DNA of 64,000 nucleotides from Phyllobates terribilis (Eukaryota). Positions 9,124 through 64,000 of this stretch are shown piece by piece (the stretch's first letter is position 1; each line of letters begins with the position of its first letter). Below the pieces are notes generated by a model that saw only the letters and a program-made list of their open reading frames with translations, searched no databases and had not been told where the DNA came from. The position numbers and the translations under genes were made by a program. Location: contig NW_027363019.1 in the NCBI RefSeq assembly GCF_046119375.1, positions 310,001 through 374,000 on the forward strand. The letters are read 5' to 3'.

Positions 9124-9139
9124 AGGGCCAACCCCCAGG
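9099..9139 (+). promoter_or_regulatory. -1 ribosomal frameshift signal (slippery heptamer plus hairpin)
   Basis: T TTA AAC (9099-9105) in the gag frame, 8-nt spacer, stem CCTGGGG...CCCCAGG (9114-9139). pol is in the -1 frame. Conserved at 18698 and 60578. Confidence 0.8.
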
Positions 9140-17768: not shown

Positions 17769-18743
17769 ACGCCCGATATAGAGGGAACTTCAACCACCGG
17801 CACGGCCGCTGCCACAGTAATGCCATTCACCATGCCTGACATACCGGGGGCAGCGTGGTTGCCCCAGTACTTAGGAGAGTCGCACACCCTGAGTGACTTC
17901 AAGGAGAGACTAAGCAGTTTATTTAAAGTATACCCCCTGTCCGAGGAGCAGAAAGTGAGCATCCTCACAGGCCAGTTGATTGGTGCAGCCCAGAGAGAAG
18001 TAAAATCCTGGTCAGCCAGGGAAAAAGGGACTGTGAAAGAGATACTGGCCCGTCTAAAGGACACTTTTGACACCCGTACTGCAGCAGAGATAAAGATGAA
18101 GTTTTATGGGTGCAAACAACGGGCACAGGACAGTGTACGGGACTATGCTTTAAACCTGCAGGAGGCGCTGAGGGCCATCAAACAGATAGACCCTGACAGT
18201 GTGCGTGATGAAAACAGACTATTAACTGAGCAATTTATTGAGGGCTTACTGTCCAGCGCCCACCGACCCCAGCTGCGCATAATGGCTCTGCAAAACCCTG
18301 ACTTGGACTTTGCTCAATTTAAGGACAGGGCCATCCGGGTGCTACGAGAACCAGCACCAGGTGGCGCTACAGCTCACCGGCGCCCAGCTATCACCTACCA
18401 CCAGGAGGTGGCACCCTTTTCCCTGGAGCCTGTAGGAGACAATGCCCCGTCTACAGACCTGCACCATCAGGTCCAAGAGCTGACTAAAAGTGTAGCTGCA
18501 CTAACCAAAACTGTGCAGTCCTTGCAGGTGCATCATAAAGGAAAGATCCAGTTGGCTTCCAGTCCGGAGGACGTCCCGTGGCGCCGACAGAAGAGGATTC
18601 CACCATCCAGAGGGAGGAACAGCGACCGCTATGACCAGGACGGACAACCCATCTGCCGCCGCTGCAACCAGCCAGAACATTATGCAAGGTACTGTCATTT
18701 AAACAAGCAAAACCTGGGGCAGAGGGCCAACTCCCAGGAGTAA
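17769..18743 (+). pseudogene. gag: Gypsy gag with the start codon mutated ATG>ACG; open from a downstream ATG at 17820
   Basis: GGAAGACG at the position of GGAAGATG in G3; in frame with the 307-aa ORF; knuckle degenerate (CRRCNQPEHYARYC). Confidence 0.75.
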
Positions 18744-21208: not shown

Positions 21209-24200
21209 TGTTATGCACACGCCCGGGCTAAGCGGCGTGTGCGTGTGATTGGTAGTGATTCCACTGGACCGTGCCGGAGAGTGAATGCCTGGAGGGGCGT
21301 GACTAAGTATTCACCCGATCCGACCAGGGTCGCACGACGGCATACGACGCCAGTGCACCAAGGAGGAACCGAGCAGAGGGACCAGGTGCTACTCCAGGAC
21401 AGACCCCGGACACGGCTGTTGACCCACACAGGGGAATACAGGAACAGGCTGGTAGGCTGGCACACAGACTGGTGGGTATAGGCAGGCACGACTGGTATGC
21501 AGGCAGGCGGGTATGCAGGCAGGGGGGTAAAGGCAAGCACAGCTAGAGTGCAGACAGGGAGGCACTAGCAGGTAGGAACACAGGCGGGATAGGACCCAGT
21601 ACACACCGGGACTCAGGAACAATACAGGCAGAGGGTTACAGGCAAGCACAGCTAGAGTGCAGACAAGGCTGAGCAGGGAGGACAGGGCTCTGTTCACACG
21701 GAACAGACAGGAAGGGAAAGACAGAGCCAGATACTCACACAGTACTTGCAGAGACAACAAGCAGGAGTTAGGTACGAGTTCAGACTCTGCAGAAAAAAGG
21801 AAGGGAACGGACATAGAGGCAAAACAGGTAAAGGATAGGAGAGAGTTCAGACTGGAACTGAGTGTACGGAGGAGACCGACACTGCAGAGGGATACAGGAG
21901 CGGGTCTGGGAATACGGCCCCCAGAGAGGCGGAACGAACAGGCAAGGAGCGTGTTCAGACAGGACAGACAAGAGAACACAGAAAGGAGTCAGTTCAGACA
22001 CGGGAGCTGATACCGCAAAGCAGGAGACATACAGGACTCAGTTCAGACACGGGAGCTGATACCGCAAAGCAGGAGACATACAGGACTCAGTTCAGACACG
22101 GGAGCTGATACCGCAAAGCAGGAGACATACAGGACACAGTTCAGACACGGGAGCTGATACCGCAAATCAGGAGACATACAGGACTCAGTTCAGACACGGG
22201 AACTGATACAAAAAGCAGGAGACAAGAGACGGGACCTGGCACCTTCAGAGTGCAAGCACACACTGAAGGAAACACTATGCTCAGGCAGGGATAGAAGGGA
22301 GCTGCTGAGCTATATACCAAGTGACAGACAGCAATAGGCTGAGGACGCACAAGGGGTGTGACCCACAGCAGGTACAAAAAGCAGGAAGTGATCGGGCGCC
22401 GCCCTTAAGCAGCAGAAACAGACACAAACAGACAGCATGGAGGGAAGCCAGAGAGACATTCTGGACAGGAGATCAAGTGCGCCCTCTTGCACAGTGGGAG
22501 ATGGACCACCATGCAAGGACGCCGCCAGGTATGTTACAGTACCTCCCCCCTTACGCCCCCTCTTCTTCAGGCCTGCCAGAATCTTCCGCAGGGAATTCGA
22601 GGGCCAGTCGTTCACTGGGTTGGAGGGGGACAGAGACTTAAGGGTAATCTCTGCTTCGAGGTACATCTTGTCAAGCTCACAGGAAGAAATAGACGGGTTA
22701 TCAGGTACATAATGAGGAAAAGTCACTGTCTCTTTGTTATCTGGTGATATCCCGGAGGATTCAGGAAACAACTGGAGGTCCTCCGCCGGGTCAGAAGAGT
22801 GCAGAGGCTCAGAGAAAACAACTGCTTCAGAGTACACTAGGTCGGACTCACTGGAGGAAGCAGGCGAGGTATCGGGTACGGAGTATAGGAAAGTCTCTGT
22901 CCATTCACCACCAGGTGGCACCCCGAAGGGTTCTGGAGACAGCTGGCGGACCTCCGCCTGGTCAGAGGGGTGTAGAGACTCACGGGTAACCTCTGCTTCA
23001 GAGTACACTAGGTCGGACTCACTGGAGGAAGCAGGCGAGGTATCGGGTACCGAGTATAGGAAAGTCTCTGTCCATTCACCACCAGGTGGCACCCCGAAGG
23101 GTTCTGGAGACAGCTGGCGGTCCTCCGCCTCGTCAGAGGGGTGTAGAGACTCACGGGTAACCTCTGCTTCAGAGTACACTAGGTCGGACTCACTGGACGA
23201 AGCAAGCGAGGTATCAGATCCAGGATATAGGAAAGTCTCTGTCCATTCACCACCAGGTGGCACCCCGAAGGATTCTGAACACAACTGGAGGTCCTCCGCC
23301 TGGTCGGAGGGGTGTAGAGACTCAGGAGTAACCTCTGCTTCGGAGTACACTAAGTTGGACTCACTGGACGAAGCGAGCGAGGTATCAGGTACAGAGTATA
23401 GGAGAGTCTCTGTCCTTTCGCTACCAGGTAGCACCCCGAAGGGTTCAGGAGACAACTGGAGGTCCTCCGCCTGGTCGGAGGGGTGTAGAGACTCGGAGGT
23501 AACTACCACTTTGGGGTACCCATTGTCAGGCTCACAGGACGAAGCGGACAAAGTATTGAGTACCGGGTGTAGAGAAGTCTCTCTCCATTTGTCATCGAGT
23601 GGAATCCCGGAGGGTTCAGGAGGCAACAGGGGATCCTCCGCCAGGTAGTAGAGGTGCACAGACTCTGAGGTAACCACAGCTTTGGAGCATCCTTGGACAT
23701 GCACACCGGTTAAAGAGAAAGAAGCATCTGATGCCGGGTGCAGGAAGTTCTCCTGTGTGGAGTCTGGATGGGCAGAAGTCTCTTCGGCCAGGAGAACTGG
23801 TGCACTACCCACGCACATTACCCATTGGGGTTTCTCCGGGATACAGGGAGATGAAGCTTCAGTAGGGACTTCAAGGTTGGGGTCAGGAGGTCTCAGGGAG
23901 GACAGACCCTGGCGTGACGGCTTGCCTCTAAGTCTAGCACGTCTGGACTGCCTCTTGAGGTTGAGAGAAGTATTCCGGAAAGCGTAGTCACCCTGTGAGG
24001 ATTCTGGGTGGGCAGTAGTCTCATTGGGCTGGAGGACTATTGCGCTACCCACACACATTACCCGTCGGGGCTGCTCCGGGATATTGGGAAGTGAAGCTTC
24101 AGCAGGGGCTTCAGAGTTAGGGTCCTCGAAGACCATACGAAAGGCCACCAGGAAGGCCTGCAGGTCAAGGATGACAGGATCCCATGCTTCCCATAGGGGG

Positions 24201-25857
24201 GTGACCCATTTCAAGGCATCACCCGCTAGGTAGTCAATCATAAAGGCCACTTTAGCCCAATCGGAAGGAAAATAGAGAGGGTAGGCCTTAAAGTGTAGCA
24301 TGCATTGCTCCACAAATGCACGACACTGTCTTGGATCCCCATAGTAACGTGGCGGATCCGCAGGAACGAGAGCTGATAGATCCATCTGGACGGGTGCGTA
24401 ATTCGCCTGGAACTCAGCTAAAGGGGGAAAAAAAATTATTTATTTATTTTAATGCATGTATTCGCTGGAAAAACTTCTCAAAGAGCGAAGGCCGTGGGGC
24501 TCAACGGGAACCATGGCCTGAGCATGCTGTTATGCACACGCCCGGGCTAAGCGGCGTGTGCGTGTGATTGGTAGTGATTCCACTGGACCGTGCCGGAGAG
24601 TGAATGCCTGGAGGGGCGTGACTAAGTATTCACCCGATCCGACCAGGGTCGCACGACGGCATACGACGCCAGTGCACCAAGGAGGAACCGAGCAGAGGGA
24701 CCAGGTGCTACTCCAGGACAGACCCCGGACACGGCTGTTGACCCACACAGGGGAATACAGGAACAGGCTGGTAGGCTGGCACACAGACTGGTGGGTATAG
24801 GCAGGCACGACTGGTATGCAGGCAGGCGGGTATGCAGGCAGGGGGGTAAAGGCAAGCACAGCTAGAGTGCAGACAGGGAGGCACTAGCAGGTAGGAACAC
24901 AGGCGGGATAGGACCCAGTACACACCGGGACTCAGGAACAATACAGGCAGAGGGTTACAGGCAAGCACAGCTAGAGTGCAGACAAGGCTGAGCAGGGAGG
25001 ACAGGGCTCTGTTCACACGGAACAGACAGGAAGGGAAAGACAGAGCCAGATACTCACACAGTACTTGCAGAGACAACAAGCAGGAGTTAGGTACGAGTTC
25101 AGACTCTGCAGAAAAAAGGAAGGGAACGGACATAGAGGCAAAACAGGTAAAGGATAGGAGAGAGTTCAGACTGGAACTGAGTGTACGGAGGAGACCGACA
25201 CTGCAGAGGGATACAGGAGCGGGTCTGGGAATACGGCCCCCAGAGAGGCGGAACGAACAGGCAAGGAGCGTGTTCAGACAGGACAGACAAGAGAACACAG
25301 AAAGGAGTCAGTTCAGACACGGGAGCTGATACCGCAAAGCAGGAGACATACAGGACTCAGTTCAGACACGGGAGCTGATACCGCAAAGCAGGAGACATAC
25401 AGGACTCAGTTCAGACACGGGAGCTGATACCGCAAAGCAGGAGACATACAGGACACAGTTCAGACACGGGAGCTGATACCGCAAAGCAGGAGACATACAG
25501 GACTCAGTTCAGACACGGGAACTGATACAAAAAGCAGGAGACAAGAGACGGGACCTGGCACCTTCAGAGTGCAAGCACACACTGAAGGAAACACTATGCT
25601 CAGGCAGGGATAGAAGGGAGCTGCTGAGCTATATACCAAGTGACAGACAGCAATAGGCTGAGGACGCACAAGGGGTGTGACCCACAGCAGGTACAAAAAG
25701 CAGGAAGTGATCGGGCGCCGCCCTTAAGCAGCAGAAACAGACACAAACAGACAGCATGGAGGGAAGCCAGAGAGACATTCTGGACAGGAGATCAAGTGCG
25801 CCCTCTTGCACAGTGGGAGATGGACCACCATGCAAGGACGCCGCCAGGTATGTTACA
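21209..25857 (-). mobile_element. Non-autonomous, pol-less (gag-only) LTR retroelement, copy A
   Basis: 1330-bp LTRs at 24528-25857 (5') and 21209-22538 (3'), TG...CA, only one substitution seen. 5-bp TSD CTTAG at 21204-21208 and 25858-25862. PPT at 22539-22565. Internal region of 1989 bp. Confidence 0.95.
22310..24385 (-). CDS. Gag-derived protein, 691 aa: LDOC1/RTL-like (DUF4939-type) capsid N-domain, 57-aa acidic repeats and a U3-encoded tail
   Basis: N-terminus PPRYYGDPRQCRAFVEQCMLHF...FPSDWAKVAFM..YLAGDAL.W..PLWE..DP...DL.AFL.AF..VF.DP is sushi/PEG10-type Gag. No MHR, CCHC or pol motif seen. Expression is unknown. Confidence 0.75.
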   Translation of the reverse strand: MDLSALVPADPPRYYGDPRQCRAFVEQCMLHFKAYPLYFPSDWAKVAFMIDYLAGDALKWVTPLWEAWDPVILDLQAFLVAFRMVFEDPNSEAPAEASLPNIPEQPRRVMCVGSAIVLQPNETTAHPESSQGDYAFRNTSLNLKRQSRRARLRGKPSRQGLSSLRPPDPNLEVPTEASSPCIPEKPQWVMCVGSAPVLLAEETSAHPDSTQENFLHPASDASFSLTGVHVQGCSKAVVTSESVHLYYLAEDPLLPPEPSGIPLDDKWRETSLHPVLNTLSASSCEPDNGYPKVVVTSESLHPSDQAEDLQLSPEPFGVLPGSERTETLLYSVPDTSLASSSESNLVYSEAEVTPESLHPSDQAEDLQLCSESFGVPPGGEWTETFLYPGSDTSLASSSESDLVYSEAEVTRESLHPSDEAEDRQLSPEPFGVPPGGEWTETFLYSVPDTSPASSSESDLVYSEAEVTRESLHPSDQAEVRQLSPEPFGVPPGGEWTETFLYSVPDTSPASSSESDLVYSEAVVFSEPLHSSDPAEDLQLFPESSGISPDNKETVTFPHYVPDNPSISSCELDKMYLEAEITLKSLSPSNPVNDWPSNSLRKILAGLKKRGRKGGGTVTYLAASLHGGPSPTVQEGALDLLSRMSLWLPSMLSVCVCFCCLRAAPDHFLLFVPAVGHTPCASSAYCCLSLGI

Positions 25858-38242: not shown

Positions 38243-40119
38243 TTACAGTTTCTTTCCTGTATGACTTCTCTCATGTCTAACAAGATACGATTTCTTTACA
38301 AAAGATTTCCCACATAGTGAACATGAATACGGCTTCTCCCCAGTGTGACTTCTCTCGTGCATCACAAGACTTAATTTACCTGTGAAGGCCTTCCCACATT
38401 CCAAACATGAAAATGGCTTTTCTCCTGTGTGAATTTTCTGATGTTTAATAAGAGTCCCTTTATCTGTAAAGCATTTCCCACATTCCAAACATGAAAATGG
38501 CTTTTCTCCTGTGTGAATTCTCTCATGTCTAACACATTTTGATTTCTCTGTAAAGCATTTCCCACATTCTGAACAGGAATATGGCTTCTCTCCTGTGTGA
38601 GTTTTCTGATGTCTAATAAGAGTCTTTTTATCAATAAAGCATTTCCCACATACTGAACATGAAAATGGCTTCTCTCCTGTGTGAATTCTCTGATGTATAA
38701 TAAATCTTGATTTAGCTGGAAAGCATTTCCCACATTCTGAACATGAATACGGCTTCTCTCCTGTGTGAGTTTTCTGATGTCTAATAAGAGTCTTTTTATC
38801 AATAAAGCATTTCCCACATAGTGAACATGAAAATGGTTTTTCTCCTGTGTGAATTCTCTGATGTATAATAAATCTTGATTTAGTTGGAAAGCATTTCCCA
38901 CATTCTGAACATGAATACAGCTTCTCCCCAGTGTGAATTCTCTCATGCATCACAAGACTTAATTTACTTGTGAAGGCCTTCCCACATTCCGAACATGAAA
39001 ATGGCTTTTCTCCTATGTGAATTCTCTCATGTATAACACATTTTGATTTATATGTAAAGCATTTCCCACATTCTGAACAGGAATATGGCTTCTCTCCTGT
39101 GTGAGTTTTCTGATGTCTAATAAGAGTCCTTTTATCTGTAAAGCATTTCCCACATACTGAACACGAAAATGGTTTTTCTCCTGTGTGAATTCTCTGATGT
39201 ATAATAAATCTTGATTTATATGTAAAGCATTTCCCACATTCTGAACATGAATACAGCTTCTCCAAAGTGTGACTTCTCTTATGCATCACAAGACTTAATT
39301 TACCTATGAAGACCTTCCCACATTCCGAACATGAAAATGTCTTTTCTCCTGTGTGAATTCTCTCATGTATAACACATTTTGATTTATATGTAAAGCATTT
39401 CCCACATTCTGAACAGGAATATGGCTTCTCTCCTGTGTGAGTTTTCTGATGTCTAATAAGAGTCCCTTTATCTGTAAAGCATTTCCCACATACTGAACAT
39501 GAAAATGGTTTTTCTCCTGTGTGAATTCTCTGATGTATAATAAATCTTGATTTACATGTAAAGCATTTCCCACATTCTGAACATGAATACGGCTTCTCTC
39601 CTGTGTGAATTCTCTGATGTTTAACAAGATTCCCTTTATCGGTAAAGCATTTCCCACATTCTGAACATGAATATGGCTTCTCTCCTGTGTGAATTCTCTG
39701 ATGTCTAATAAGATTCCCTTTATCTGTAAAGCATTTCCCACATTCTGAACATGAATATGGCTTCTCTCCTGTGTGACTTCTCTGATGTATAACAAATTTT
39801 GTTTGATTTGTAAAGCATTTCCCACATTCTGAACAGGAGTATGGCTTTTCTCCTTTGTGTTTTCTTTGTGTCTGAGCTGAGCATTTAGTAAATTGCTTGT
39901 CACACTGAAATCTTGTATCCACTGTGTCACCTGGAATTGTGGTAATAATGCGAGATTGCTCAGGAGATGATTCCTCATGATCAGGAGGATTATAAGAAGG
40001 TGAAGTGCTGTGAAGTCCAGGAGGTGCAGGAAGGGTGATGAGGTTTCCTCCATTAGAGTGCTTCCAGATATCTTCTTTTTTACAATTTAGTGATGAACCG
40101 TTATTCCCACAAGGATTTC
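38243..40119 (-). CDS. C2H2 zinc-finger gene, terminal exon (19 tandem fingers, TGEKP linkers)
   Basis: Uninterrupted ORF to TAA at 38245-38243; acceptor TTTTTTTTCTATCTTTCATCCCTACAG|GA at 40120; phase 1. Confidence 0.95.
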
Positions 40120-40365
40120 CTGTAGGGATGAAAGATAGAAAAAAAATCACATCTAATCTACAACACAAAAGGGATTTCTATTCTAAATGTATTTTCTGGA
40201 TCTCACAATAAAGACCCTCGTCAGTGAAAGTACCGGTAATAAGGAAGACAACTACATGCCATAACATTAACACAATGACGGGTAAAGTGAATGACACTTA
40301 TAAACTGGTGACATTGGCACAAGTCAGGGGTACCAGAGATTAGACAGCAAATAGACAGTTCTTAA

Positions 40366-41074: not shown

Positions 41075-42370
41075 CCTCTGGAGCCTCCTTATTCCATTAA
41101 CCACCCTACACCACGGATCCTTCTTATCCCCTGGAGCCTCCCTACACCACGCATCCTTCTTATCCCCTGGAGCCTCCCTACATCACGGATCCTCCTTATC
41201 CCCTGGAGCCTCCCTACACCACAGAGTCTGCTTATCCCCTGGAGCCTCCCTACACCATGGATCCTCCTTATCCCCTGGAGCCTCCCTATACCACGGATCC
41301 TCCTTATCCCCTGGAGCCTTCCTACACCACGGAGCCTCCTTATCCCCTGGAGCCTCCCTACACCACGGATCCTCATCATCCCCTGGAGCCTCCCTACACC
41401 ATGAATCCTCATCATCCCCTGGAGCCTCCCTACACCACGGATCATCCTTATCCCCTGGAGCCTCCCTACACCACGGATCATCCTTATCCCCTGGAGCCTC
41501 TCTACACCACAGAGCCTGCATATCCCCTGGAGCCTCCCTACACCACAGAGCCTGCTTATCCCCTGGAGCCTCCCTACACCACAGAGCCTGCTTATCCCCT
41601 GGAGCCTCCCTACACCACGGATCCTCCTTATTACCTGGGGCCTCCCTACACCACGGATCCTCCTTATCCCCTGGAGCCTCCCTACACCATGGATCCTCCT
41701 TATCCCCTGGAGCCTCCCTACACCATGGATCCTCCTTATTCCCTGGAGCCTCCCTACACCATGGATCCTCCTTATCCCCTGGAGCCTCCCTACACCACGG
41801 ATCCTCCATATCCCCTGGAGCCTCCCTACACCATGGATCCTCCTTATCCCCTGGAGCCTCCCTACACCATGGAACCTCCTTATTCCCTGGAGCCTTCCTA
41901 CACCATGGATCCTCCTTATCCCCTGGAGCCTACCTACACCATGGATCCTCCTTATCCCCTGGAGCCTCCCTACACCACGGATCCTTCTTATCCCCTGGAG
42001 CCTCCCTACACCACAGAGCCTCCTTATCTCCTGGAGCCTCCCTACACCACAGAGCCTCCTTATCCCCTGGAGCCTCCCTACACCACAGAGCCTCCTTATC
42101 TCCTGGAGCCTCCCTACACCACGGATCCTCCTTATCCCCTGGAGCCTCCATACACCACAGAGCCTCCTTATCTCCTGGAGCCTCCCTACACCACGGATCC
42201 TCCTTATCCCCTGGAGCCTCCCTACACCACAGAGCCTCCTTATCCCCTGGAGCCTCCCTACACCATGGATCCTCCTTACCCCCTGGAGCCTCCCTACACC
42301 ACGGATCCTCCTTATCCCCTGGAGCCTCCCTACACCACGGATCCTCCTTATCCCCTGGAGCCTCCCTACA
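41075..42370. repeat. Minisatellite, 36-bp unit, ~36 copies
   Basis: Unit TATCCCCTGGAGCCTCCCTACACCACGGATCCTCCT. Confidence 0.97.
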
Positions 42371-44182
42371 TTACTTGGTCTATATGCAGCTGAACCTACT
42401 GCACATGTGATACATCCGCCCCTGCCCAAAACACTAAATATATGTCCTTAAAAATTATGTTTAAAGGGAAACTGTCCGTTCCCTGTGCCCCCAGAACCCG
42501 CAGCAGTTGTGTCTGCAGATATAAACTCTCCGCCTAACATCTCTATTACATTAAACACACAAACAGATGTTTAGAAAAAGTATTGTATTTCTAAAGTTTA
42601 TGATATGTAAATGAGGCCTTTGACTTGTCGATGAGGCGTTCGTGACCCCAGAGCAGTCGCCCCACTTAGCATGTCATCACGGCTTTGGGGGCTTGAGAAC
42701 ATGACAAACCTACCGCATGCGCGCGGCTTCTCCTCCTCACTGCATTGAGCCTCTGACGCCGGGTGTACGCGTCCCATTACTGAGATAGGAGAGGACGGTC
42801 ACTGCTGGTCAGAGTCCATGTAGATGGGAGGAGCTCGGCCTCTAGCCCCGCCCTCCTCTCCCCTCCCCCTACAAAGAATCTTATCAGGAGCGGCCGTCAC
42901 CTCCGATCTCAGTGATGGAACAATGTTTCCTAATTGAATAGAGATTTTACCCCGGAACCGAGAATCCTGAGACGGAATAAGAAATACGCAGATTTCTGTG
43001 GAGACTCCGGGGACAAAGTTTCCTATTTCCATCTCGTCTATTCTTACAATTCATGAAGTTTATTCCTCTTATTCTTGTGTAATAAAGACTGATCAGGACG
43101 TTGTGTATATTATATGGGAACAATGAGGAATACTGTCACCATGTAACAATACATCGCTTATGGTTTATGGCCGCCAGGATTTGGTAACACAAAAATGTCT
43201 GAAAAGAAACAAAGTATTTATTGTAGAAAAGTCCTAAAAGAAAATGAAATAAATATATTGTTATTGGCTTGGATTAGTTGTATTACCGCAGTTACAGAGA
43301 CCCTCCACCCCGGGACTGAACACTACACATTTCCCTATACAGTCCCCTATGGGGTCCTCTGCCCTCCGCTGCCCCCTCAGATCGGTGGTCCCTTCCCCCG
43401 GCTTCCAGGGCGGCCAGTGCAGTGGTATGGGGAGTGCAGTAATACGTCTACCCCACCCTCCCCTGCCTTTCCTGTGCTGTGACCTATGGGGCAGCGCCAC
43501 ATCCTATTAATCTCCCAGCAGTCTGCGGGGCGTCACCAGTTACAGATGTATTCTGCACCTGCTTTCATTGCTCCTGTTTGTTTTTGGTAACCTTGTCTGG
43601 CTTCCATAATACCCCGGGATGACTTAGGCCTCCATCTACAGGACCATTCTTACTCGGCTTCCTGATTCTGACCTCGTCCCGCTTCTTGATTGTCTAGCAC
43701 CTGCCATCTTTAGGTCTGATCTGACATGTCGACCTTCTTCTGCCAGCTCGCTCTACCAGCCAGCACTACTATGTGGAGCCGCCCCGGTGTCTGTGCTGTA
43801 AGTCCAGATCACTGTACAGTGGTGAAAAGATGGAAGCCGGGAAACCTCTGGGACCGGCTGTATGGAGACTGTCTGTAAGCGCCTTATTATTAGGACCTGC
43901 CAGGTTTCCTCCATCGGTTCACTGTTACAGGAGGCAAATGGAGGACACAAGGAAGGGAGTTGTAACATACCTGGCGGCGTCCTTGCATGGTGGTCCATCT
44001 CCCACTGTGCAAGAGAGCGCACTTGATCTCCTGTCCAGAATGTCTCTCTGGCTTCCCTCCATGCTGTCTGTTTGTGTCTGTCTCTGCTGCTTAAGGGCGG
44101 CGCCCGATCACTTCCTGCTTTTTGTACCTGCTGTGGGTCACGCCCCTTGTGCGTCCTCAGCCTATTGCTGTCTGACACTTGG

Positions 44183-44222
44183 TATATAGCTCAGCAGCTC
44201 CCTTCTATCCCTGCCTGAGCAT
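44183..44222 (+). promoter_or_regulatory. LTR TATA box and predicted transcript 5' end, complementary to the PBS position
   Basis: TATATA at 44183-44188; GCCTGAGCAT at 44213-44222 is the reverse complement of ATGCTCAGGC at 45729-45738, just after the 5' LTR. Confidence 0.7.
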
Positions 44223-45865
44223 AGTGTTTCCTTCAGTGTGTGCTTGCACTCTGAAGGTGCCAGGTCCCGTCTTTGTTTCCTTGTCTGCCTTTCCTGGAGG
44301 CTGTATTTCCAGGCCTGTCTGAACTTAGTCCTGTATGTCTCCTGCTTTGCGGTATCAGCTCCCGTGTCTGAACTGTGTCCTGTATGTCTCCTGCTTTGCG
44401 GTATCAGCTCCCGTGTCTGAACTGACTCCTGTATGTCTCCTGCTTTGCGGTATTAGTTCCCGTGTCTGAACTGAGTCCTGTATGTCTCCTGCTTTGCGGT
44501 ATTAGTTCCCGTGTCTGAACTGAGTCCTGTATGTCTCCTGCTTTGCGGTATCAGCTCCCGTGTCTGAACTGAGTCCTGTATGTCTCCTGCGTTGCGGTAT
44601 TAGTTCCCGTGTCTGAACTGAGTCCTTTCTGTGTTCTCTTGTCTGTCCCGTCTGAACACGCTCCTAGCCTGTTCCTCCCGCCTTCTAGGGGCCGATTACC
44701 TAGACCCGCTCCTGTATCTTGTCTGTCCTGTCTGAACACGCTCCTTGCCTGTTCGTCCCGCCTCTCTGGGGGCAGTATTCCCAGACCCGCTCCTGTATCC
44801 CGCTGCAGTGTCGGTCTCCTCCGTACACTCAGTTCCAGTCTGAACTCTCTCCTATCCTTTACCTGTTTTGCCTCTATGTCCGTTCCCTTCCTTTTTCTGC
44901 AGAGTCTGAACTCGTACCTAACTCCTGCCTGTTGTCTCTGTACTCCCGTTTGTGAGTTTGTGGTCCACTCGCTACTTCACTGCAAGTACCCTGTGGGTGT
45001 CTGGCTCTGTCTTTCCCTTCCTGTCTGTTCCGTGTGAACAGAGTCCTGTCCTGCCCTGCTTCTGCCCGCTGCTCCGGCAGTCCTGTCCTGCCCTGCTTCT
45101 GCCCACTGCTCCGGCAGTCCTGTCCTGCCCTGCTTCTGCCCGCTGCTCCGGCAGTCCAGTCCTGCCCTGCTTCTGCCCGCTGCTCCGGCAGTCCTGTCCT
45201 GCCCTGCCTGTACCCCTCTGCCTGTAATGTTCCTGAGTCCCAGTGTGTACTGGGCCCTATCCCGCCTGTGTTCCTACCTGCTAGTGCCTCCCTGTCTGCA
45301 CTCTAGCTGTGCTTGCCTGTAACCCTCTGCCTGTATTGTTCCTGAGTCCCGGTGTGTACTGGGTCCTATCCCGCCTGTGTTCCTACCTGCTAGTGCCTCC
45401 CTGTCTGCACTCTAGCTGTGCTTGCCTTTACCCCCCTGCCTGCATACCCGCCTGCCTGCATACCAGTCTGTGTGCCAGCCTACCAGCCTGTTCCTGTATT
45501 CCCCTGTGTGGGTCAACAGCCGTGTCCGGGGTCTGTCCTGGAGTAGCACCTGGTCCCTCTGCTCGGTTCCTCCTTGGTGCACTGGCGTCGTATGCCGTCG
45601 TGCGACCCTGGTCGGATCGGGTGAATACTTAGTCACGCCCCTCCAGGCATTCACTCTCCGGCACGGTCCAGTGGAATCACTACCAATCACACGCACACGC
45701 CGCTTAGCCCGGGCGTGTGCATAACAGCATGCTCAGGCCATGGTTTCCGTTGAGCCCCACGGCCTTCGCTCTTTGAGAAGTTTTTCCAGCGAATACATGC
45801 ATTAAAATAAATAAATAAATTTTTTTTCCCTTAGCTGAGTTCCAGGCGAATTAAGCACCGTCCAG

Positions 45866-47599
45866 ATGGATCTATCAGCTCTCGTTCCTGCGGATCCGCC
45901 ACGTTACTATGGGGATCCAAGACAGTGTCGTGCATTTGTGGAGCAATGCATGCTACACTTTAAGGCCTACCCTCTTTATTTTCCTTCCGATTGGGCTAAA
46001 GTGGCCTTTATGATGTCTTACCTGGCGGGTGATGCCTTGGAATGGATCAACCCCCTATATGAAACACAGGATCCGATCCTCCGGGACCTAATGGCCTTCC
46101 TGGTGGCCTTTCTAATGGTCTTCGATGATCCTAACCCGGAGGCTCCTGCTGAAGCTTCACTTCCCAATATCCCGGAGCAGCCCCAATGGGTAATGTGTGT
46201 GGGTAGCGCAATAGTCCTCCAGCCCAATGAGACTACTGCCCACCCAGAATCCTCACAGGGTGACTACGCTTTCCGGAATACTTCTCTCAACCTCAAGAGG
46301 CAGTCCAGACGTGCTAGACTTAGAGGCAAGCCGTCACGCCAGGGTCTGTCCTCCCTGAGACCTCCTGACCCCAACCTTGAAGTCCCTACTGAAGCTTCAT
46401 CTCCCTGTATCCCGGAGAAACCCCAATGGGTAATGTGCGTGTGTAGTGCACCAGTTCTCCTGCCCGAAGAGACTTCTGCCCATCCAGACTCCACACAGGA
46501 GAACTTCCTGCACCCGGCATCAGTTGCTTCTCTCTCTTTAACCGGTGTGCATGTCCAAGGATGCTCCAAAGCTGTGGTTACCTCAGAGTCTGTGCACCTC
46601 TACTACCTGGCGGAGGATCCCCTGTTGCCTCCAGAATCCTCCGGGATACCTCTCGATGACAAATGGAGAGAGACTTCTCTACACCCGGTACTCAATACTT
46701 TGTCCGCTTCGTCCTGTGAGCCTGACAATGGGTACCCCAAAGTGGTAGTTACCCCCGAGTCTCTACACCCCTCCGACCAGGCGGAGGATCTCCAGTTGTC
46801 TCCTGAACCCTTCGGGGTGCTACCTGGTAGCGAAAGGACAGAGACTCTCCTATACTCTGTACCTGATACCTCGCTCGCTTCGTCCAGTGAGTCCAACCTA
46901 GTGTACTCCGAAGCAGAGGTTACTCCCGAGTCTCTACACCCCTCCGACCAGGCGGAGGACCTCCAGTTGTGTTCAGAACCCTTTGGGGTGCCACCTGGTG
47001 GTGAAAGGACAGAGACTCTCCTATACTCTGTACCTGATACCTCGCTCGCTTCGTCCAGTGAGTCCAACCTAGTGTACTCCGAAGCAGAGGTTACTCCCAA
47101 GTCTCTACACCCCTCCGACCAGGCGGAGGACCTCCAGTTGTGTTCAGAACCCTTCGGGGTGCCACCTGGTGGTGAATGGACAGAGACTTTCCTATACTCG
47201 GTACCCGATACCTCGCCTGCTTCCTCCAGTGAGTCCGACCTAATGTACCTCGAAGCAGAGATTACCCTCAAGTCTCTGTCCCCCTCCAACCCAGTGAACG
47301 ACTGGTCCTCGAATTCCCTGCGGAAGATTCTGGCAGGCCTGAAGAAGAGGGGGCGTAAGGGGGGAGGTACTGTAACATACCTGGCGGCGTCCTTGCATGG
47401 TGGTCCATCTCCCACTGTGCAAGAGAGCGCACTTGATCTCCTGTCCAGAATGTCTCTCTGGCTTCCCTCCATGCTGTCTGTTTGTGTCTGTCTCTGCTGC
47501 TTAAGGGCGGCGCCCGATCACTTCCTGCTTTTTGTACCTGCTGTGGGTCACGCCCCTTGTGCGTCCTCAGCCTATTGCTGTCTGACACTTGGTATATAG
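45866..47599 (+). CDS. Gag-derived protein, 577 aa (copy B; two fewer 57-aa repeats than copy A)
   Basis: Intact ORF; 691-577 = 114 = 2 x 57; the stop TAG overlaps the U3 TATA box of the 3' LTR. Confidence 0.75.
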   Translation: MDLSALVPADPPRYYGDPRQCRAFVEQCMLHFKAYPLYFPSDWAKVAFMMSYLAGDALEWINPLYETQDPILRDLMAFLVAFLMVFDDPNPEAPAEASLPNIPEQPQWVMCVGSAIVLQPNETTAHPESSQGDYAFRNTSLNLKRQSRRARLRGKPSRQGLSSLRPPDPNLEVPTEASSPCIPEKPQWVMCVCSAPVLLPEETSAHPDSTQENFLHPASVASLSLTGVHVQGCSKAVVTSESVHLYYLAEDPLLPPESSGIPLDDKWRETSLHPVLNTLSASSCEPDNGYPKVVVTPESLHPSDQAEDLQLSPEPFGVLPGSERTETLLYSVPDTSLASSSESNLVYSEAEVTPESLHPSDQAEDLQLCSEPFGVPPGGERTETLLYSVPDTSLASSSESNLVYSEAEVTPKSLHPSDQAEDLQLCSEPFGVPPGGEWTETFLYSVPDTSPASSSESDLMYLEAEITLKSLSPSNPVNDWSSNSLRKILAGLKKRGRKGGGTVTYLAASLHGGPSPTVQESALDLLSRMSLWLPSMLSVCVCLCCLRAAPDHFLLFVPAVGHAPCASSAYCCLTLGI

Positions 47600-50500
47600 C
47601 TCAGCAGCTCCCTTCTATCCCTGCCTGAGCATAGTGTTTCCTTCAGTGTGTGCTTGCACTCTGAAGGTGCCAGGTCCCGTCTTTGTTTCCTTGTCTGCCT
47701 TTCCTGGAGGCTGTATTTCCAGGCCTGTCTGAACTTAGTCCTGTATGTCTCCTGCTTTGCGGTATCAGCTCCCGTGTCTGAACTGTGTCCTGTATGTCTC
47801 CTGCTTTGCGGTATCAGCTCCCGTGTCTGAACTGACTCCTGTATGTCTCCTGCTTTGCGGTATTAGTTCCCGTGTCTGAACTGAGTCCTGTATGTCTCCT
47901 GCTTTGCGGTATTAGTTCCCGTGTCTGAACTGAGTCCTGTATGTCTCCTGCTTTGCGGTATCAGCTCCCGTGTCTGAACTGAGTCCTGTATGTCTCCTGC
48001 TTTGCGGTATTAGTTCCCGTGTCTGAACTGAGTCCTTTCTGTGTTCTCTTGTCTGTCCCGTCTGAACACGCTCCTAGCCTGTTCCTCCCGCCTTCTAGGG
48101 GCCGATTACCTAGACCCGCTCCTGTATCTTGTCTGTCCTGTCTGAACACGCTCCTTGCCTGTTCGTCCCGCCTCTCTGGGGGCAGTATTCCCAGACCCGC
48201 TCCTGTATCCCGCTGCAGTGTCGGTCTCCTCCGTACACTCAGTTCCAGTCTGAACTCTCTCCTATCCTTTACCTGTTTTGCCTCTATGTCCGTTCCCTTC
48301 CTTTTTCTGCAGAGTCTGAACTCGTACCTAACTCCTGCCTGTTGTCTCTGTACTCCCGTTTGTGAGTTTGTGGTCCACTCGCTACTTCACTGCAAGTACC
48401 CTGTGGGTGTCTGGCTCTGTCTTTCCCTTCCTGTCTGTTCCGTGTGAACAGAGTCCTGTCCTGCCCTGCTTCTGCCCGCTGCTCCGGCAGTCCTGTCCTG
48501 CCCTGCTTCTGCCCGCTGCTCCGGCAGTCCTGTCCTGCCCTGCTTCTGCCCGCTGCTCCGGCAGTCCAGTCCTGCCCTGCTTCTGCCCGCTGCTCCGGCA
48601 GTCCTGTCCTGCCCTGCCTGTACCCCTCTGCCTGTAATGTTCCTGAGTCCCAGTGTGTACTGGGCCCTATCCCGCCTGTGTTCCTACCTGCTAGTGCCTC
48701 CCTGTCTGCACTCTAGCTGTGCTTGCCTGTAACCCTCTGCCTGTATTGTTCCTGAGTCCCGGTGTGTACTGGGTCCTATCCCGCCTGTGTTCCTATCTGC
48801 TAGTGCCTCCCTGTCTGCACTCTAGCTGTGCTTGCCTTTACCCCCCTGCCTGCATACCCGCCTGCCTGCATACCAGTCTGTGTGCCAGCCTACCAGCCTG
48901 TTCCTGTATTCCCCTGTGTGGGTCAACAGCCGTGTCCGGGGTCTGTCCTGGAGTAGCACCTGGTCCCTCTGCTCGGTTCCTCCTTGGTGCACTGGCGTCG
49001 TATGCCGTCGTGCGACCCTGGTCGGATCGGGTGAATACTTAGTCACGCCCCTCCAGGCATTCACTCTCCGGCACGGTCCAGTGGAATCACTACCAATCAC
49101 ACGCACACGCCGCTTAGCCCGGGCGTGTGCATAACAGGAGTCTATATATGATAACCGTATAGTCACTTCTCAGTCTCAGGGTGGACGGTCGTTTTATCAC
49201 TCAACTTGTGCAGCTCATGAAGAGAGAAAAATTCTAAAAAATAACAGCAGAATAAAGATGATAAAGTAACAAGATGAGAAATACAACTCATCCCCCACAA
49301 AAAAGCTCCTCATACAGCGAGGTCAGTAATGAGAAATAAACGATCAAGAATGGAAGAAACAATCCAACAGAGGCCGGACAGACATCTGTCTGAGATGGTG
49401 AGTCCTGCATTGAGCAGGGGGCTGGATACGGGGACCCTGGAGGTGGTCCCCTCCAACCAGAACATTCTAGGATTGTAAGTTGTTTGGTCATTTTATCTGT
49501 AAATCATTTCCCCCATTATCGGCCTTACAGATACATTATTTTATTGATTTTTTTACTTTCTCGTCCTCTCATTTCCGGAGTCATAATGTTATTGGTCACT
49601 AAGCTGTGCAGTTCTTCTGCTATTCACCCTATAAATGTAAGAAAATACTGACAACTGGGCGTTACCATTGTTCCCCTACATTGTCCAATCAGCGCTGAGT
49701 GTCAGAAGTGTGGGGACACATGTATGGAGAACGGTGACACCCGGTTATCATGTCATTCATAAATGTCGGAGGAACGGCCGGGAATCTGAGCAGCAGTTTC
49801 TTTCTTTGGTAACAATTCTTGTCGGAAAAAGAATTTCATCCAATTTATTGGTAAAAAAACAAAAACAAAAAAACTTAAAACTTTCGGAACCTGGATGAGG
49901 ACGTCTTCTTACCTTCTTTTGGTAATTTATATATTTTACTGTTGGAAAGAGAATTATTTATTCACGTTAGAGGCTCAGATGGGGGGACGATTCCTAGACG
50001 ACATCTTGTTTGTCTGGAGAGACCGAGAGTGAAGATTCTTCTAAAGGGACGTTCCCAAAATCACAATGTGCTCTTATAATAAAGTACACCCTGGTTATTG
50101 TGAATATAACCCCTGTATAACATCTGGCCTCTCCTGCACATATCACCCCCTGAGTATGCCCCCCAGGATCTATATACCCAGCAGTTGTCATTGTAACCAA
50201 TACATACCGAGGAGCCACATGTTATACACTGGGGGGTGGGACAGGGCTGGATGTTATACACCGGGGGGACAACAGGGCCTGAAGGAGAAGCCAGAATGCA
50301 GTGATTAATGCGGGTGGCCCAATACTATTCTCCATATAGTGAATCTCTCCATATTACAAGATTCACCATAAATGAGACGCTGACAGGGGATATAATCCGT
50401 GCATGGTGAAGGGCGCCCCCTCTGGGTAGTATTTAGTCTCCATGTTTATACGTTGATTGAACCAGAACTCAAAAACCAACATGATGTCAGATAACGACAA

Positions 50501-58142: not shown

Positions 58143-59630
58143 TGTGTCACCCTGGCCTGGATGCCACAAAATGTATTAAAGCTGTGTCTGAGAGCAAGGG
58201 GGAGGTTCTCTCGTCAGGGGAACATTAGCATGCAATGCCTCCTGTCTCAGGCCAGTAGGGGGAGCTGGCTGCCCCTATAAAAGCTGGTACTGGGGGCAGG
58301 GTTAGAGAGAACTGGATGACCTGTCTCAGCACTGAGACGTGTCCCAGAGTGGAGCAGGGACAGAAAGTTGATTGCACCTAAGAGGAAGTGTGGCAGGAGG
58401 AGAGCCACAAGCCAGAGACAAGAGGCGATGAGAGCCTGTCTTGGCAGAGAAAAGACTTAACTTTACCAGACTTTGGTGTCTGAGGCTGGGAGGATTCCAC
58501 ATTCTCCAGCAGATAACCAGTCTGCAAGGGACTGTACATTCCTTGGCCTAAGAAGCCTGGAGGCCCTGCCACAACCGAAGGGACCAGTAAAGCCGTACAA
58601 GGCTGGGAGCAGAAAGGAACCCACGTCGCAGGCCATACAGGCGAGAAAACACGGAAAGCTCGGAAACGTGGGCTGTTACCCTATAAGGAGGAGATAGCCA
58701 GAAGGAGCGCAGAAAGCACGGTAGGCCTACACCCTCACCCTGACCAGGGCCAATTTCCCCGTTGCTCTCAGACATCCAGGTCCCCTCCTAGCTGGGACTG
58801 TTTGTGGGTCAGTTTACCTGTTTAGTAAAGACCCTGGACTGCAACCTGTTGTCTGTGTGCTCCTTGCTCCTCCAGCACTACCGGCACTGGAACTCTCACT
58901 ACCATCACTCCCACCATCCACCACACTGCCCTGGGGCCGCACTCTTCCCGTGGGGAGTCACACCATCCCTAGCTGCACACCTCATCAGCCCCAGCTGTCT
59001 GCATGCAGCGGCGGTTCCTAATAACCGCAATCCACGGGTGGCGTAGTCGGACATTATCAATAGTGCATAGCAGACTACCACTGGCCTGACCACCCTGAGC
59101 CACGGAACCGGGTTGCCACAACTACCACCATCGTTTCCTATTGCCCGGATCCGAGTGCCCCACGGCCCAGGGGGCGAGTCAGCTTTGGCGTAGTCGGCAG
59201 GATTTCGTGCCCGCAACCACCGGGTACTGCGTGCCTGAAAAAGACTTTTGTAACTTACCTGTGGCGAAGTTTCCCGCCGTCCGGAGTCGTTTCCCGCCAT
59301 CCGGAGCCGATTCCCGCCATCAGACGCCATCTTGGACCGTTTCCCGCCATCTTCTGCCGTCTTCCCGCCATCCGCAGCTGCTTCCCGCCATCGGACGCCA
59401 TCTTCAGGACGCCGCGCGGGAAGAAGAGGGGCGTGGACATCAAAACCGCGCGAGATCCGAAGCTCCGCCCCACGCACCGACGCTGCGCAAGGTCCTGGAA
59501 GGGAGAGAGAGCGACGCTGACGTCATCAGGACGCGATGCCAGGTCCTCGTCCATAGCAGCAGCAGCGGAGCCGTGGCCTACAGAAGAGGATCGTCGGAAG
59601 GTAGGCCACGCTTAACTAGGGGGGAGGAAG

Positions 59631-60623
59631 ATGTCAGACACAGAGGCCCCCACTACCACCAACGCAGCTGCAGCAGCGGTGATGCCCTTTTCCCTGCCCT
59701 ACATCCCTGGAGCGGCCTGGCTGCCCAAATACTCAGGGGAGCCCCATGCCCTAACTGACTTCAAGGAAAGGCTATACAGTTTGTTCCACGTTTACCCCCT
59801 GACAGAGGAACAGAAGGTCAGCATATTAACAGGGCAGTTAACTGGCGCAGCCCAAAGGGAGGTAAAATCATGGCCCACTGAGGAGAAAAGGACTGTGAAG
59901 GGTATTCTGGCCCGGCTGCGGGGTACCTTTGACACACGTACCTCCGCTGAGATTAAAATGAGGTTCTATGGATGTAAGCAGCGGGCACAGGACAGCATCA
60001 GAGACTATGCCCTAAATCTGCAGGAAGCCTTGAGGGCTATTCAACAAACTGACCCTGGCAGTGTGCAGGAAACGGATAAGCTGCTAACAGAACAATTCAT
60101 AGAAGGACTGCTGTCTAGTGCCCACAGGGCCCAACTGCGCCTCATGTTCTTTCAGAACCCCGACCTGACCTTTGCCCAATTTAAGGACAGGGCCATAAGG
60201 GTGCTCCGTGAATCTGCAACCCGTGGCGCTATAAACCCCCGGCGCCCTGCTCTCACCTACCACCAGGAGGCGGCACCCTCCTCTATGGACCCCGTGGGGG
60301 CTGATGCACAGGCCCTGAACCAAGCCCTGTCGAAAGACCTGCACCACCAAGTCCAGGAGCTGACCAGGAGCGTCGCGGCGTTGACCAGGACCGTCCAGGC
60401 GTTGCAAGTGGACCCGTCAAGACCCATCGAGCTGGCTTCAAGTCCGGAGGATGTCCCGTGGCGTCGACAGAGGAGGATCCCGTCGTTCCGAGGGAGGCCC
60501 ACAGACCGCTACGCAGAGGATGGACAGCCCATTTGCCGTCGATGCAACCAGCCCGGACACATTTCCAGGTACTGTAATTTAAACGGGTCCAACCTGGGGC
60601 AGAGGGCCAACCCCCAGGCATAA
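59631..60623 (+). CDS. gag: Gypsy Gag, 330 aa
   Basis: Intact ORF with CRRCNQPGHISRYC knuckle. Confidence 0.9.
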   Translation: MSDTEAPTTTNAAAAAVMPFSLPYIPGAAWLPKYSGEPHALTDFKERLYSLFHVYPLTEEQKVSILTGQLTGAAQREVKSWPTEEKRTVKGILARLRGTFDTRTSAEIKMRFYGCKQRAQDSIRDYALNLQEALRAIQQTDPGSVQETDKLLTEQFIEGLLSSAHRAQLRLMFFQNPDLTFAQFKDRAIRVLRESATRGAINPRRPALTYHQEAAPSSMDPVGADAQALNQALSKDLHHQVQELTRSVAALTRTVQALQVDPSRPIELASSPEDVPWRRQRRIPSFRGRPTDRYAEDGQPICRRCNQPGHISRYCNLNGSNLGQRANPQA

Positions 60624-63600
60624 GATCACTAGGCCCTTATAATTGGCGTGATAAGTATGTTGGGGGGCGCCCGGTTTTACCCGTGGTGCTGGACGGTATC
60701 CCCATGAGCGCCTTGCTGGATACTGGGTCGCAAGTAACCACTATCCCTTATGTACTTTTTAAGCAGTATTGGACTGATGCTGATATCACACGGTATCCAG
60801 ACAGTAACTTGAGCATCATCGCCAGTAATGGCTTACCCGTGCCGCAGATGGGGTTCAAGGAGATGACCATTAAAATTGCTAAAGTTGAACTGCCAGCACA
60901 GGGAGTGATTATTGTGGACATTGACCGTTGTGAAAGTCACCCTAAAATAACTGTGGGTACTAATGTAATTGAAAATTGTCTTTCAGAGGTAATTGTAATT
61001 CTACAACAGGTGGCGGTGAATGCTAGTTCCAGCCAACAGAGAGTCCTCAACAAGGAGATAAAAGCCCTGATGAGACGGCAGCAGGTAGAACTGTCTGGTG
61101 GTGAGATCGGTAGCGTAAGACTGAGTGACCCATTCCCCATTTCCATGCCTCCCAAAAGTGAAATGATGATCTGGTGTCGGACTGCAATCGGGTTGAGAGG
61201 TAGAGACTACCAAGCAATGGTAGAACCCGTGTACTCAGACAGCAGGCCCACCATTTTGACAGCCCGGGGGGTGGTTGATGTCCGTCATGGGAGGGTGCCC
61301 GTTCGCATCCTCAACATTGGGGAGAGGGAAGTACACTTACCCAGGTACGCTACACTCGCCAAACTGTTTGTTGTCGAACACCAAGCTATCAGGGCCGTGG
61401 AAGCCTTGCCTCCATCTCCACAGGCGGAGGGTAATGGCTCCCAGAAACAAAAGGAGGACTGGTGCCAGAAACTCCATGTGGGTGCTGACTCCACTCCCCT
61501 GCACCAAAAACAAGGAGTCTACCGGGTGGTACAGGAGTACGAGAGAGTCTTTAGTAAGCACCTGCTAGACTTCGGCAGAGTAAAAGAGATAGAACACCAC
61601 ATCCCCACAGGGAGCCACCCACCAATAAAAGAGAGGCACAGACCTGTACCCCCTGCACATTATCAGAACGCAAAGGGCATGCTAAGAGAGATGAAAGAAG
61701 CTGGGGTTATTAGAGACAGCTGTAGCCCCTGGGCAGCCCCCTTGGTTCTGGTCAAAAAGAAATACGGCACCATGAGAATGTGCGTCGACTATAGACAAAT
61801 CAACCGTATCACCCACAAAGACGCATATCCGCTGCCTAGAATAGAGGAGTCTTTAGCCGCACTAAAATCAGCTAACTTCTTTTCTACTTTGGACCTTACT
61901 AGCGGGTACTGGCAGGTTCCTGTGGCAGAGGCTGACAAGGAGAAGACCGCCTTCACCACCCCGATGGGACTCAGTGAGTTCAACTGTATGCCCTTCGGAC
62001 TCTGCAACGCACCAGGGACCTTCCAGAGGCTGATGGAATGCTGTCTAGGGCACCGAAACTTCGAGACGGTCCTCCTTTACCTGGACGACGTGATCGTCTA
62101 TTCAAAGACCTACGAGGACCACCTAAAGCACCTGGCCGAGGTGTTCGAAGCCCTGGCAGGCTATGGCCTGAAGGTGAAACCATCGAAGTGTCACCTGCTG
62201 AAACCAAAGGTCCAGTACCTAGGGCACGTGGTAAGCGCGGAAGGAGTGGCCCCCGACCCTGACAAGGTCACGGCAATCAAGAGCTGGCCAAGCCCCTCGA
62301 ACATCAAAGGGGTGAGACAGTTTCTCGGGTTGGTAGGCTACTACCGAAGGTTCATCCCCGGGTTCACTAAGATGGCAGCTCCTATGCAGGACCTCCTGAT
62401 CGGACAGTCTAAGTCCAGGAGCCAAAAGCCGCCCTTCAAGTGGGATAAACCGGAAGAGGAGTCCTTCCGCCAGCTAAAGATGGCTCTCACAGGGGACGAG
62501 ATCCTGGCCTACCCTGATTATGGCCAGCCTTTCATTCTCCACACAGATGCCAGTAATGTGGGACTGGGAGCCGTACTGTCCCAAAACCAACGGGGCAGAG
62601 AACGGGTGATCGCGTACGCCTGCCGGAAGCTGAGACCCACTGAGAGGAACCCGGAGAATTACAGCTCCTTCAAGCTAGAATTCTTGGCAGTGGTGTGGAC
62701 CGTGACGGAACGCTTCAAGCATTACCTGGCCTCCGCAAAGTTCACCGTGTACACGGACAACAATCCGTTGACACACCTGGACAATGCAAGACTGGGTGCC
62801 CTGGAACAGCGGTGGATGGCCCGTCTCTCCAACTATGACTTCGTGATCAAGTACCGGGCAGGCAAAACCAATGCCAACGCAGACGCCCTGTCGAGGATGC
62901 CTCACTTACCTGAAGGTGACGAAGACCCAGAAGAGCTGGAGGAGGTAGAACTCCCCGCGTTTCACCGATATGGAGCCGCTCAACACTCTCACCGCGTGAA
63001 GGAGGAGGATCTAACAACTGTGATGATGAATCCCCTACCTCACCACAGCTGGGCCGAGACCCAAGATAGTGACCCTGCAGTCCGCCTGGTGAAAGATCTG
63101 CTGACCCGGGAAGACGCCCGCTTAGATCCAGATGCCCCAGAGGAAGTCAAGCAGCTATGGAAGGAGAAGAGCAAGCTGTTCCTCTACGAAGGCAAGTTGT
63201 GCAGAAGGATTGTCAACCACCGGACGCATGAGCTGACCTGGCAAGTCGTGGTCCCAAGGAGGGATGCAGCTATGGTCCTGGGGGCTTACCATGACAGAGC
63301 GGGACACTTCGGTTGGAAGAAACTGGAGTTCCTACTAAGAGGAAGATTCTTTTGGGTCGGCATGAGAGGAGCTGTAGAAAAATGGTGCAGAGACTGTGGC
63401 CCTTGTCACCTAAGGAGGAAGGACCGTGCCAGCCAGAAGACACCCTTGAGGCCCATCGTCACCACGCAGCCTCTTGAGCTGGTAGCTCTGGACCATGTCA
63501 AATTGGCTCCAAGCCGGTCCGGATACATCTACGCCCTGACAATCGTGGACCACTATTCCCGTTTTCTAGTGGTGGTCCCGGTAAAGGACTTGACAGCCCA

Positions 63601-64000
63601 AACAGAGGCCAGATCAGGGTCCAGCGTTCGAAGCTGAAATCTTCCAGGAGTTCTGCAACCTCTATGGCTGTAAGAAGATTCGTACAACGCCTTACCACCC
63701 CCAAACCAACGCGATGTGTGAGAAAATGAACAATATAGTCATTGATCTCCTGAAGACGTTGCCCCTGGAGGAACGCAGCCTGTGGCCAGAAAAACTGCCG
63801 GACCTGATAGACATGTACAACAATATCCCGGTGAATGCTACAAACTGCACCCCGGCTTACCTGATGCGAGCTAGACCAGGTAAGCTGCCCGTAGACCTGG
63901 AGATGGGAGTCCTAATACCTGAGGACACCGCCCCGGATGCGGACTGGGATACGGAAAGGCAACTGCAGTACAAGAAGGTACAGGAGAGTGTGGAGAAGAG
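60584..64000 (+). pseudogene. pol: Gypsy pol: PR, RT and RH open; integrase frameshifted by a ~50-nt deletion at ~63610
   Basis: 984-aa ORF ends ...TAQTEARSGSSVRS*; the IN core (AFEAEIFQEFC...YHPQTN) continues in another frame. Confidence 0.92.

Follow-up and report, generated by a model that had tools for sequence, protein, structure and literature searches.

The two LTR retrotransposon copies in the window (the whole stretch of 64,000 nucleotides of DNA that was analysed) very probably represent a recent, high-copy, pol-less LTR family, related to chromodomain Ty3/gypsy elements, that uses nucleotides 1-10 of its own RNA as the primer for reverse transcription. The site that follows the LTR complements the part of the LTR in which the RNA is predicted to start, and no CCA-complementary TGG is found at the LTR end. 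Based on site geometry, capsid and relatives, rather than on a reverse transcriptase tree, we file the family as a probable non-autonomous derivative of the Tf1/sushi type. The known mechanism is left unchanged by this, as self-priming is expected for the Tf1/sushi group, where it is a common feature in both fungi and vertebrates (10.1101/2022.12.06.519325; PMC6317226; PMC7175516).

Two copies and a ten-base match

Both A and B are intact LTR elements of recent origin, with 5-bp target duplications and near-identical LTRs. The LTRs of copy B (43961-45726 and 47371-49136) are 1766 nt long, differ by 3 mismatches and are flanked by the target-site duplication GGAGT, while those of copy A are 1330 nt long, with 1 mismatch and the duplication CTAAG. 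A TG...CA LTR pair, a target-site duplication and a polypurine tract are present and pol is absent, which identifies the elements as non-autonomous LTR retrotransposons. Their features in the window are:

43956-43960, + strand: target-site duplication 5' of copy B, GGAGT, found again at 49137-49141
43961-45726, + strand: 5' LTR of copy B, TG...CA, 1766 nt
44183-44189, + strand: TATA box, TATATAG (TATATA at 44183-44188), its 30-nt offset retained in 20/21 diverged haplotypes
44213-44222, + strand: predicted RNA nucleotides 1-10 and predicted self-primer, GCCTGAGCAT, from a putative start site
44223-44228, + strand: hinge of variable sequence (AG, AAG or ATG) where the cut is predicted, followed by TGTT
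45693-45720, + strand: predicted 9-bp hairpin at the LTR end, its local fold no better than shuffles (z -0.31)
45727-45728, + strand: 2-nt spacer (GC) from the LTR to the primer-binding site
45729-45738, + strand: predicted primer-binding site, ATGCTCAGGC, complement of 44213-44222, with C next at 45739
45866-47599, + strand: single ORF, comprising a capsid N-terminal domain (DUF4939, about 90 aa) and 57-aa repeats
47341-47370, + strand: polypurine tract and 2-nt spacer, 5' of the 3' LTR
47371-49136, + strand: 3' LTR of copy B, in which the 10-mer occurs again (47623-47632)
21209-25857, - strand: copy A, with an ORF of the same type and LTRs at 25857-24528 and 22538-21209

The TATA box has its first T at 44183, the 10-mer at 44213-44222 starts 30 nt further on, and 45729-45738 is the exact reverse complement of this 10-mer, so that every coordinate given in the earlier note for the TATA box, the 10-mer and its complement in copy B is correct. 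Copy A has the same geometry, again as described there, with its TATA box at 25635-25630, the 10-mer at 25605-25596 and the primer-binding site at 24525-24516. The bases separating the paired strands number 1,070 in copy A and 1,506 in copy B, matching the ~1.07 kb and ~1.5 kb first proposed. When the first 18 nt past the LTR were compared with the LTR, this pair was the sole complement of 7 nt or more; the chance of such a complement is 1.1e-3 anywhere in the LTR and 3.4e-5 within TATA+25 to TATA+35 over 5 offsets. The claim that there is no TGG site of the tRNA type stands for the LTR end but calls for an addition, because a TGG is present at 45741. Since it lies 14 nt past the LTR end, and not within the few bases of the LTR expected in a tRNA-primed Ty3/gypsy element, this is the wrong place for a tRNA site.

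The 5' LTR of copy B carries 49-, 37- and 109-nt tandem arrays 3' of the TATA box and is poor in A (168/1514 nt after 44213). Across the copy A/B family, LTRs are 1.3-2.2 kb long and contain neither AATAAA nor ATTAAA. RNA folding predicts the helix between 10-mer and site with a probability of 0.94-1.00 at 37 °C for the complete RNAs of 1,152 and 1,588 nt, long folding being only indicative, and of 0.96-1.00 for copy B at 20 °C. The duplex has a predicted energy of -17.4 kcal/mol, compared with -14.1 kcal/mol for the next-best partner of the 10-mer. The TGTT of the hinge is able to pair with the terminal AACA of the LTR, and is paired only in the copy A fold.

Covariation across families and conservation within one

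Related elements were sampled at 40 ten-kb loci, 20 drawn from 150 DUF4939 matches and 20 from 150 Tf2-type SH3 matches, with long open frames favoured; numbers such as L062 and L270 are labels of the fetched genomic loci. The scan looked for ACA, 2 nt and a 10-mer with its complement some 30 nt past a TA-rich box. A 2-nt spacer beginning with G was one of its criteria, the same geometry having earlier surfaced unprompted. An exact pair was found at 23 loci, one mismatch (in some cases G-U) at 7, two mismatches at 1 (probably false) and no pair at 9, while controls using the complement only, the reverse only or the same sense, over 40 loci each, yielded 0 exact and 0 one-mismatch pairs. Because they represent about seven families with shared ancestry, the 23 exact loci are not a count of independent events. 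There are 8 distinct exact 10-mer pairs, the element's own included, in which 7 of the 10 positions vary, all of them as Watson-Crick pairs, and the capsids of families with exact pairs are 35-52% identical to the element's. This covariation, with eight different sites each fitting its own LTR, supports the self-priming put forward in the earlier note. The comparison of RNA start and primer-binding site suggested there as a check thus holds across families (8 exact pairs) and, within the family, in part (10/21, see below).

A C directly follows the primer-binding site at 23/23 exact sister loci and in both window copies (45739 in copy B), with the next base varying; exceptions are L075 (A) and L076 (G). 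Opposite this C, the base before the 10-mer is T or C at 23/23 exact sister loci. The C after the site would face the G of the 5' cap. An A/T change in the GAG/CAG context of the 10-mer recurs in compensated form at L260, L267 and L272 as well as in the element family (three separate families). At L062 and L067, an 8-9 bp duplex connects the LTR end with sequence at or just past the gag start, and differs in sequence between families.

Within the family, the conservation footprint was read from older subfamilies picked on the site only, in which the TATA box was in range at 25/30 loci, giving 21 distinct haplotypes. Anchored on TATA, the 10-mer starts at +30 in 20/21 haplotypes and at +29 in 1/21. 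Counting from the predicted RNA start, the majority-base share is 0.90-1.00 at +1 to +10 across the 21 haplotypes, flanked by values of 0.38 and 0.76 at -2 and -1, and of 0.48 and 0.57 at +11 and +12. The pair is perfect in 29 of the 30 closest loci, one of them copy B itself. Indels in the young subfamily fall at +10/+11 in 36/76 LTRs, with none from -57 to +9, and could go back to two ancient events. At -1, directly before the 10-mer, 11/46 young-subfamily LTRs have a G (T>G).

The family also contains a variant site. Position 5 of the primer-binding site is changed in 83 junctions (75 T>A, 5 T>G and 3 T>C), and of the 21 T>A copies in which the LTR start is visible, 10 have the complementary A>T change in the 10-mer. 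Genome-wide, the variant 10-mer is found in 367/6,876 LTRs (5.3%; p 4e-8 against 10/21, uncorrected for descent), and in sets not chosen on the 10-mer the complementary variant occurs in 0/47 old-site copies in view. A descent-corrected test comprises 3-4 pairs only, never discordant, with p 0.25-1. Taken from the other side, among 22 elements with the variant 10-mer on one stretch of the genome, 20/22 retain the old primer-binding site and 2/22 are compensated, so that genomic copies often have a U-U mismatch in the helix. On a tree of the adjacent leader/ORF, the variant site requires 13 changes, at least 10 of which are forced by well-supported branches, compared with 23.6 for shuffled labels, and identical downstream haplotypes include both site states. 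This pattern would fit a copying back of the primer together with strand jumps between two packaged RNAs, or template switching alone.

Proposed priming and competing explanations

In the mechanism that we favour, transcription would start at the G at 44213, and nucleotides 1-10 of the RNA would pair with the site two bases beyond the LTR, be it on the same molecule or on a co-packaged sister RNA. Cleavage after about nucleotide 10 would then fall to the RNase H of a reverse transcriptase supplied by an autonomous relative, and the freed 3' end would be extended through the 2-nt spacer and then through 1-2 kb of LTR. Later, the plus strand would copy the primer back into the primer-binding site.

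Self-priming has been proposed for the vertebrate Tf1/sushi elements (V-clade chromoviruses: sushi-ichi and Amn-ichi/ni/san) by Butler et al. 2001 (via PMC6317226 and PMC10085805), and in the literature examined it is so far only predicted from sequence in vertebrates. The covariation across families and the conservation footprint back this prediction. They also suggest that self-priming apparently still works in a pol-less family with more than 5,500 copies and a 1-2 kb spacing. It would explain how such a parasite can spread without a matching tRNA or its helper's primer, and annotation based on tRNA will miss such elements. In a search that covered sources other than Repbase and most subscription journals, we found no earlier report uniting self-priming, absence of pol and kilobase spacing in a vertebrate family.

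It is possible, if doubtful, that the thousands of copies amount to a genomic record of the priming chemistry. The primer would be copied back into the primer-binding site and could stem from a co-packaged partner RNA, scattering the variant site across unrelated haplotypes; the C that almost always follows the site and the T>G change seen at -1 (11/46 LTRs) would be marks of a paired or copied 5' cap, and the +10/+11 insertions a mark of the cut. If true, this would provide sequence-only evidence for self-priming in vertebrate sushi elements, partly in trans and at spacings of up to 2 kb.

Among the competing explanations, one is itself a variant of self-priming, in which one molecule mostly primes another: the 5' end of a packaged RNA would prime on its partner's site, so that no 1-2 kb loop is needed. 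Old and variant 10-mers do occur with old and variant sites in all four pairings, the 13 changes of the variant site are scattered over the leader/ORF tree, with identical downstream haplotypes in both states, and the spacing of 10-mer and site is free to vary from 1,041 to about 2,000 nt. Mixed combinations, however, are also expected if priming within the molecule is followed by a first strand jump to the partner, or from template switching. Moreover, the within-molecule helix is predicted at a probability near 1, and the variant is more clustered than shuffled labels (13 versus 23.6 changes). We therefore regard priming mostly between molecules as conceivable but rather unlikely.

Alternatively, the site might pair with the 10-mer of the 3' LTR, circularising the RNA for strand transfer or packaging, with some other primer in use. 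The 3' copy of the 10-mer would pair equally well, with the same duplex energy, and the LTR has neither AATAAA nor ATTAAA. Yet the pairing ends exactly at TATA+30 in exact-match families, even though the 3' copy has upstream sequence free to extend the helix, and the site is located where the primer must be to define the LTR end, which makes circularisation improbable.

Priming by a host tRNA, a half-tRNA or another small RNA, with the match to the LTR incidental, could appeal to the TGG at 45741 and to the Xenopus element xretpos, which has been suggested to use tRNA-Arg (PMC4585706). The 14-nt distance of this TGG from an LTR end fixed by target duplications speaks against it. A partial check for a matching tRNA, which according to the earlier note would tell against self-priming, found none: a tRNA scan covering 13/30 loci returned tRNA-Lys TTT only, without a match to the site, none of 6 genomic matches to the 10-mer core plus a T-loop motif was a tRNA gene, and an Rfam search gave no match near threshold. 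More weight attaches to the fit of each of eight different sites to its own LTR, and we consider a host primer very improbable. Finally, ten bases are short enough to invite chance, but the probability of 3.4e-5 for the position, the 23/40 exact pairs against 0/40 per control and the TATA-anchored footprint leave it next to no likelihood.

Copy number, coding capacity and relatives

Exact junctions of LTR end and site number 5,573 in the 10.6-Gb genome, with 0 in the control, and open frames among the best 150 capsid matches genome-wide reach no more than 764 aa, from which we conclude that the copy A/B family is young, abundant and pol-less. In the young subfamily, 1,041-1,688 nt separate the 10-mer from the LTR end; in older ones the distance reaches 1,997 nt, with one further, unchecked value of 3,287 nt. 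Spacing in Tf1 is under 0.2 kb, so that the loop is indeed long by that standard, as had been claimed. It is not exceptional beside the sister families, which have spacings of 171-946 nt and, in some cases, LTRs that are also repeat-expanded; the 1-2 kb loop is therefore the upper end of a continuum, in a comparison that takes in Tf1 and the sister families. Some copies stand in head-to-tail arrays, with 3 or 4 copies about 3.3-4.2 kb apart (G000:C1:86492394-86504727; G000:C3:572395526-572402085). These arrays, here known from junction positions alone, resemble the tandem elements of integrase-independent Tf1 insertion (PMC11042837).

The claim that the element is non-autonomous was confirmed by a Pfam search of its ORF, which found no pol and no domain besides DUF4939 (E 1e-7 over about 76 residues of the copy A/B ORF). 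The ORF reads through the polypurine tract and U3 and stops within the TATA box of the 3' LTR; as its stop is the TAG of that box (window 47593-47599), the whole of U3 is translated. The capsid piece is 51% identical over 89 aa to the N-terminal capsid part of the Gag of L270, an autonomous relative, whose downstream capsid region and zinc knuckle have no counterpart in the pol-less element. L270 Gag matches PEG10 (7LGA, E 2e-7), which together with DUF4939 points to a Gag of the sushi/PEG10 type, and a PDB search with the element's own 91 aa capsid piece gave no significant match. Judged by these matches, the element has lost pol and most of gag. Although reduced to the capsid N-terminal part fused to an acidic tail of expanded repeats, the ORF is open in most of the best 150 copies. 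Copies A and B diverge in a block at about residues 60-95, which suggests recombination between subfamilies. A short upstream ORF lies directly after the primer-binding site (45740-45803), placed like the start codon of gag in the L270 family. Near 45834, an AG with a polypyrimidine tract resembles a splice acceptor, and no splice joint or fitting loose end was found there among the matches listed (contigs of six runs).

Two of the sister families encode gag-PR-RT-RH-IN-SH3-chromo (L063, L270), with the chromodomain after the integrase in these autonomous relatives; the element itself is without pol. No autonomous element with exactly this LTR was found among the 30 that were read of 81 matches to the site with other spacers; these 30 were older subfamilies of the same element. 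Among the autonomous families sampled, the L270 type is nearest: its capsid is 51% identical, and its DNA is about 80% identical over the polypurine tract and the start of the LTR (L270) and 80-83% identical over a 103-nt LTR segment (three loci). A tree also places it nearest, without strong support. The L270-type family is thus a candidate helper for the pol-less element.

Turning to known systems, nucleotides 1-11 of Tf1 RNA pair with the site, and RNase H cuts at 11/12 (PMC7175516), in line with the earlier note's account of 11-nt self-priming in Tf1 and its proposed extension to the sushi group (PMC6317226). Tf1 also needs two flanking duplexes (PMC10085805), and its cDNA ends with the copied primer-binding site (PMC11042837). 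Like Tf1/Tf2 of Schizosaccharomyces pombe, Tj1, Tosmo1-3 and Tcry1, the element has no tRNA site, and the site after its LTR complements the predicted RNA 5' end (PMC7175516; PMC4600332; 10.1101/2022.12.06.519325). Unlike Tf1, it would use 10 nt rather than 11, has a spacing of 1-2 kb, lacks pol and shows weak flanks of the pretzel structure. The central helix is predicted, the upstream duplex has 4 bp (-2.4 kcal/mol) and the downstream duplex is without a fixed register, although the latter is clear in the L062- and L066-type families. Furthermore, the Tf1 mechanism is proven by experiment, whereas that of the element is deduced from its sequence.

In Silurana, Amn-san elements, which outnumber all other LTR elements there, were the only ones found to carry a chromodomain (PMC4131045); the sister families of the element are likewise chromodomain-bearing. 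Compared with Sushi LTRs (PMC3601003), the element's LTR ends loosely fit the motifs TGTYANR / CNTNACA, but its LTRs are 1.3-2.2 kb long against a mean of 572 nt in the training set, and lack the AATAAA that Sushi LTRs have near the 3' end. Likened by description rather than by sequence, the Xenopus elements xretpos and 1a11 are also amphibian LTR elements without pol, 1a11 encoding a 71-kDa Gag-like protein; they differ in having tens to hundreds of copies, as opposed to more than 5,500 here, and, for xretpos, in the suggested use of tRNA-Arg (PMC4585706). In plants, self-priming is predicted from sequence in 83% of Tcn1 (gypsy) and 89% of TAR (copia) elements (PMC6317226, supplement 5); unlike the pol-less element, these plant lineages are autonomous.

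Elsewhere in the window are other Ty3/gypsy elements (8143-13236, 17658-18743 and 59616-63637) with a PNMA-type gag, RT-RH-IN and no chromodomain, a C2H2 zinc-finger exon (38243-40177, - strand) and a 36-nt tandem array whose two strands both contain open frames (41104-42370). The best SH3_Tf2-1 matches in the assembly (L227-L256) are all on small contigs, C3181-C7643. Five of these loci, when translated, resemble what we take to be plant chromovirus integrases, hinting that the small-contig loci are plant contamination in the assembly.
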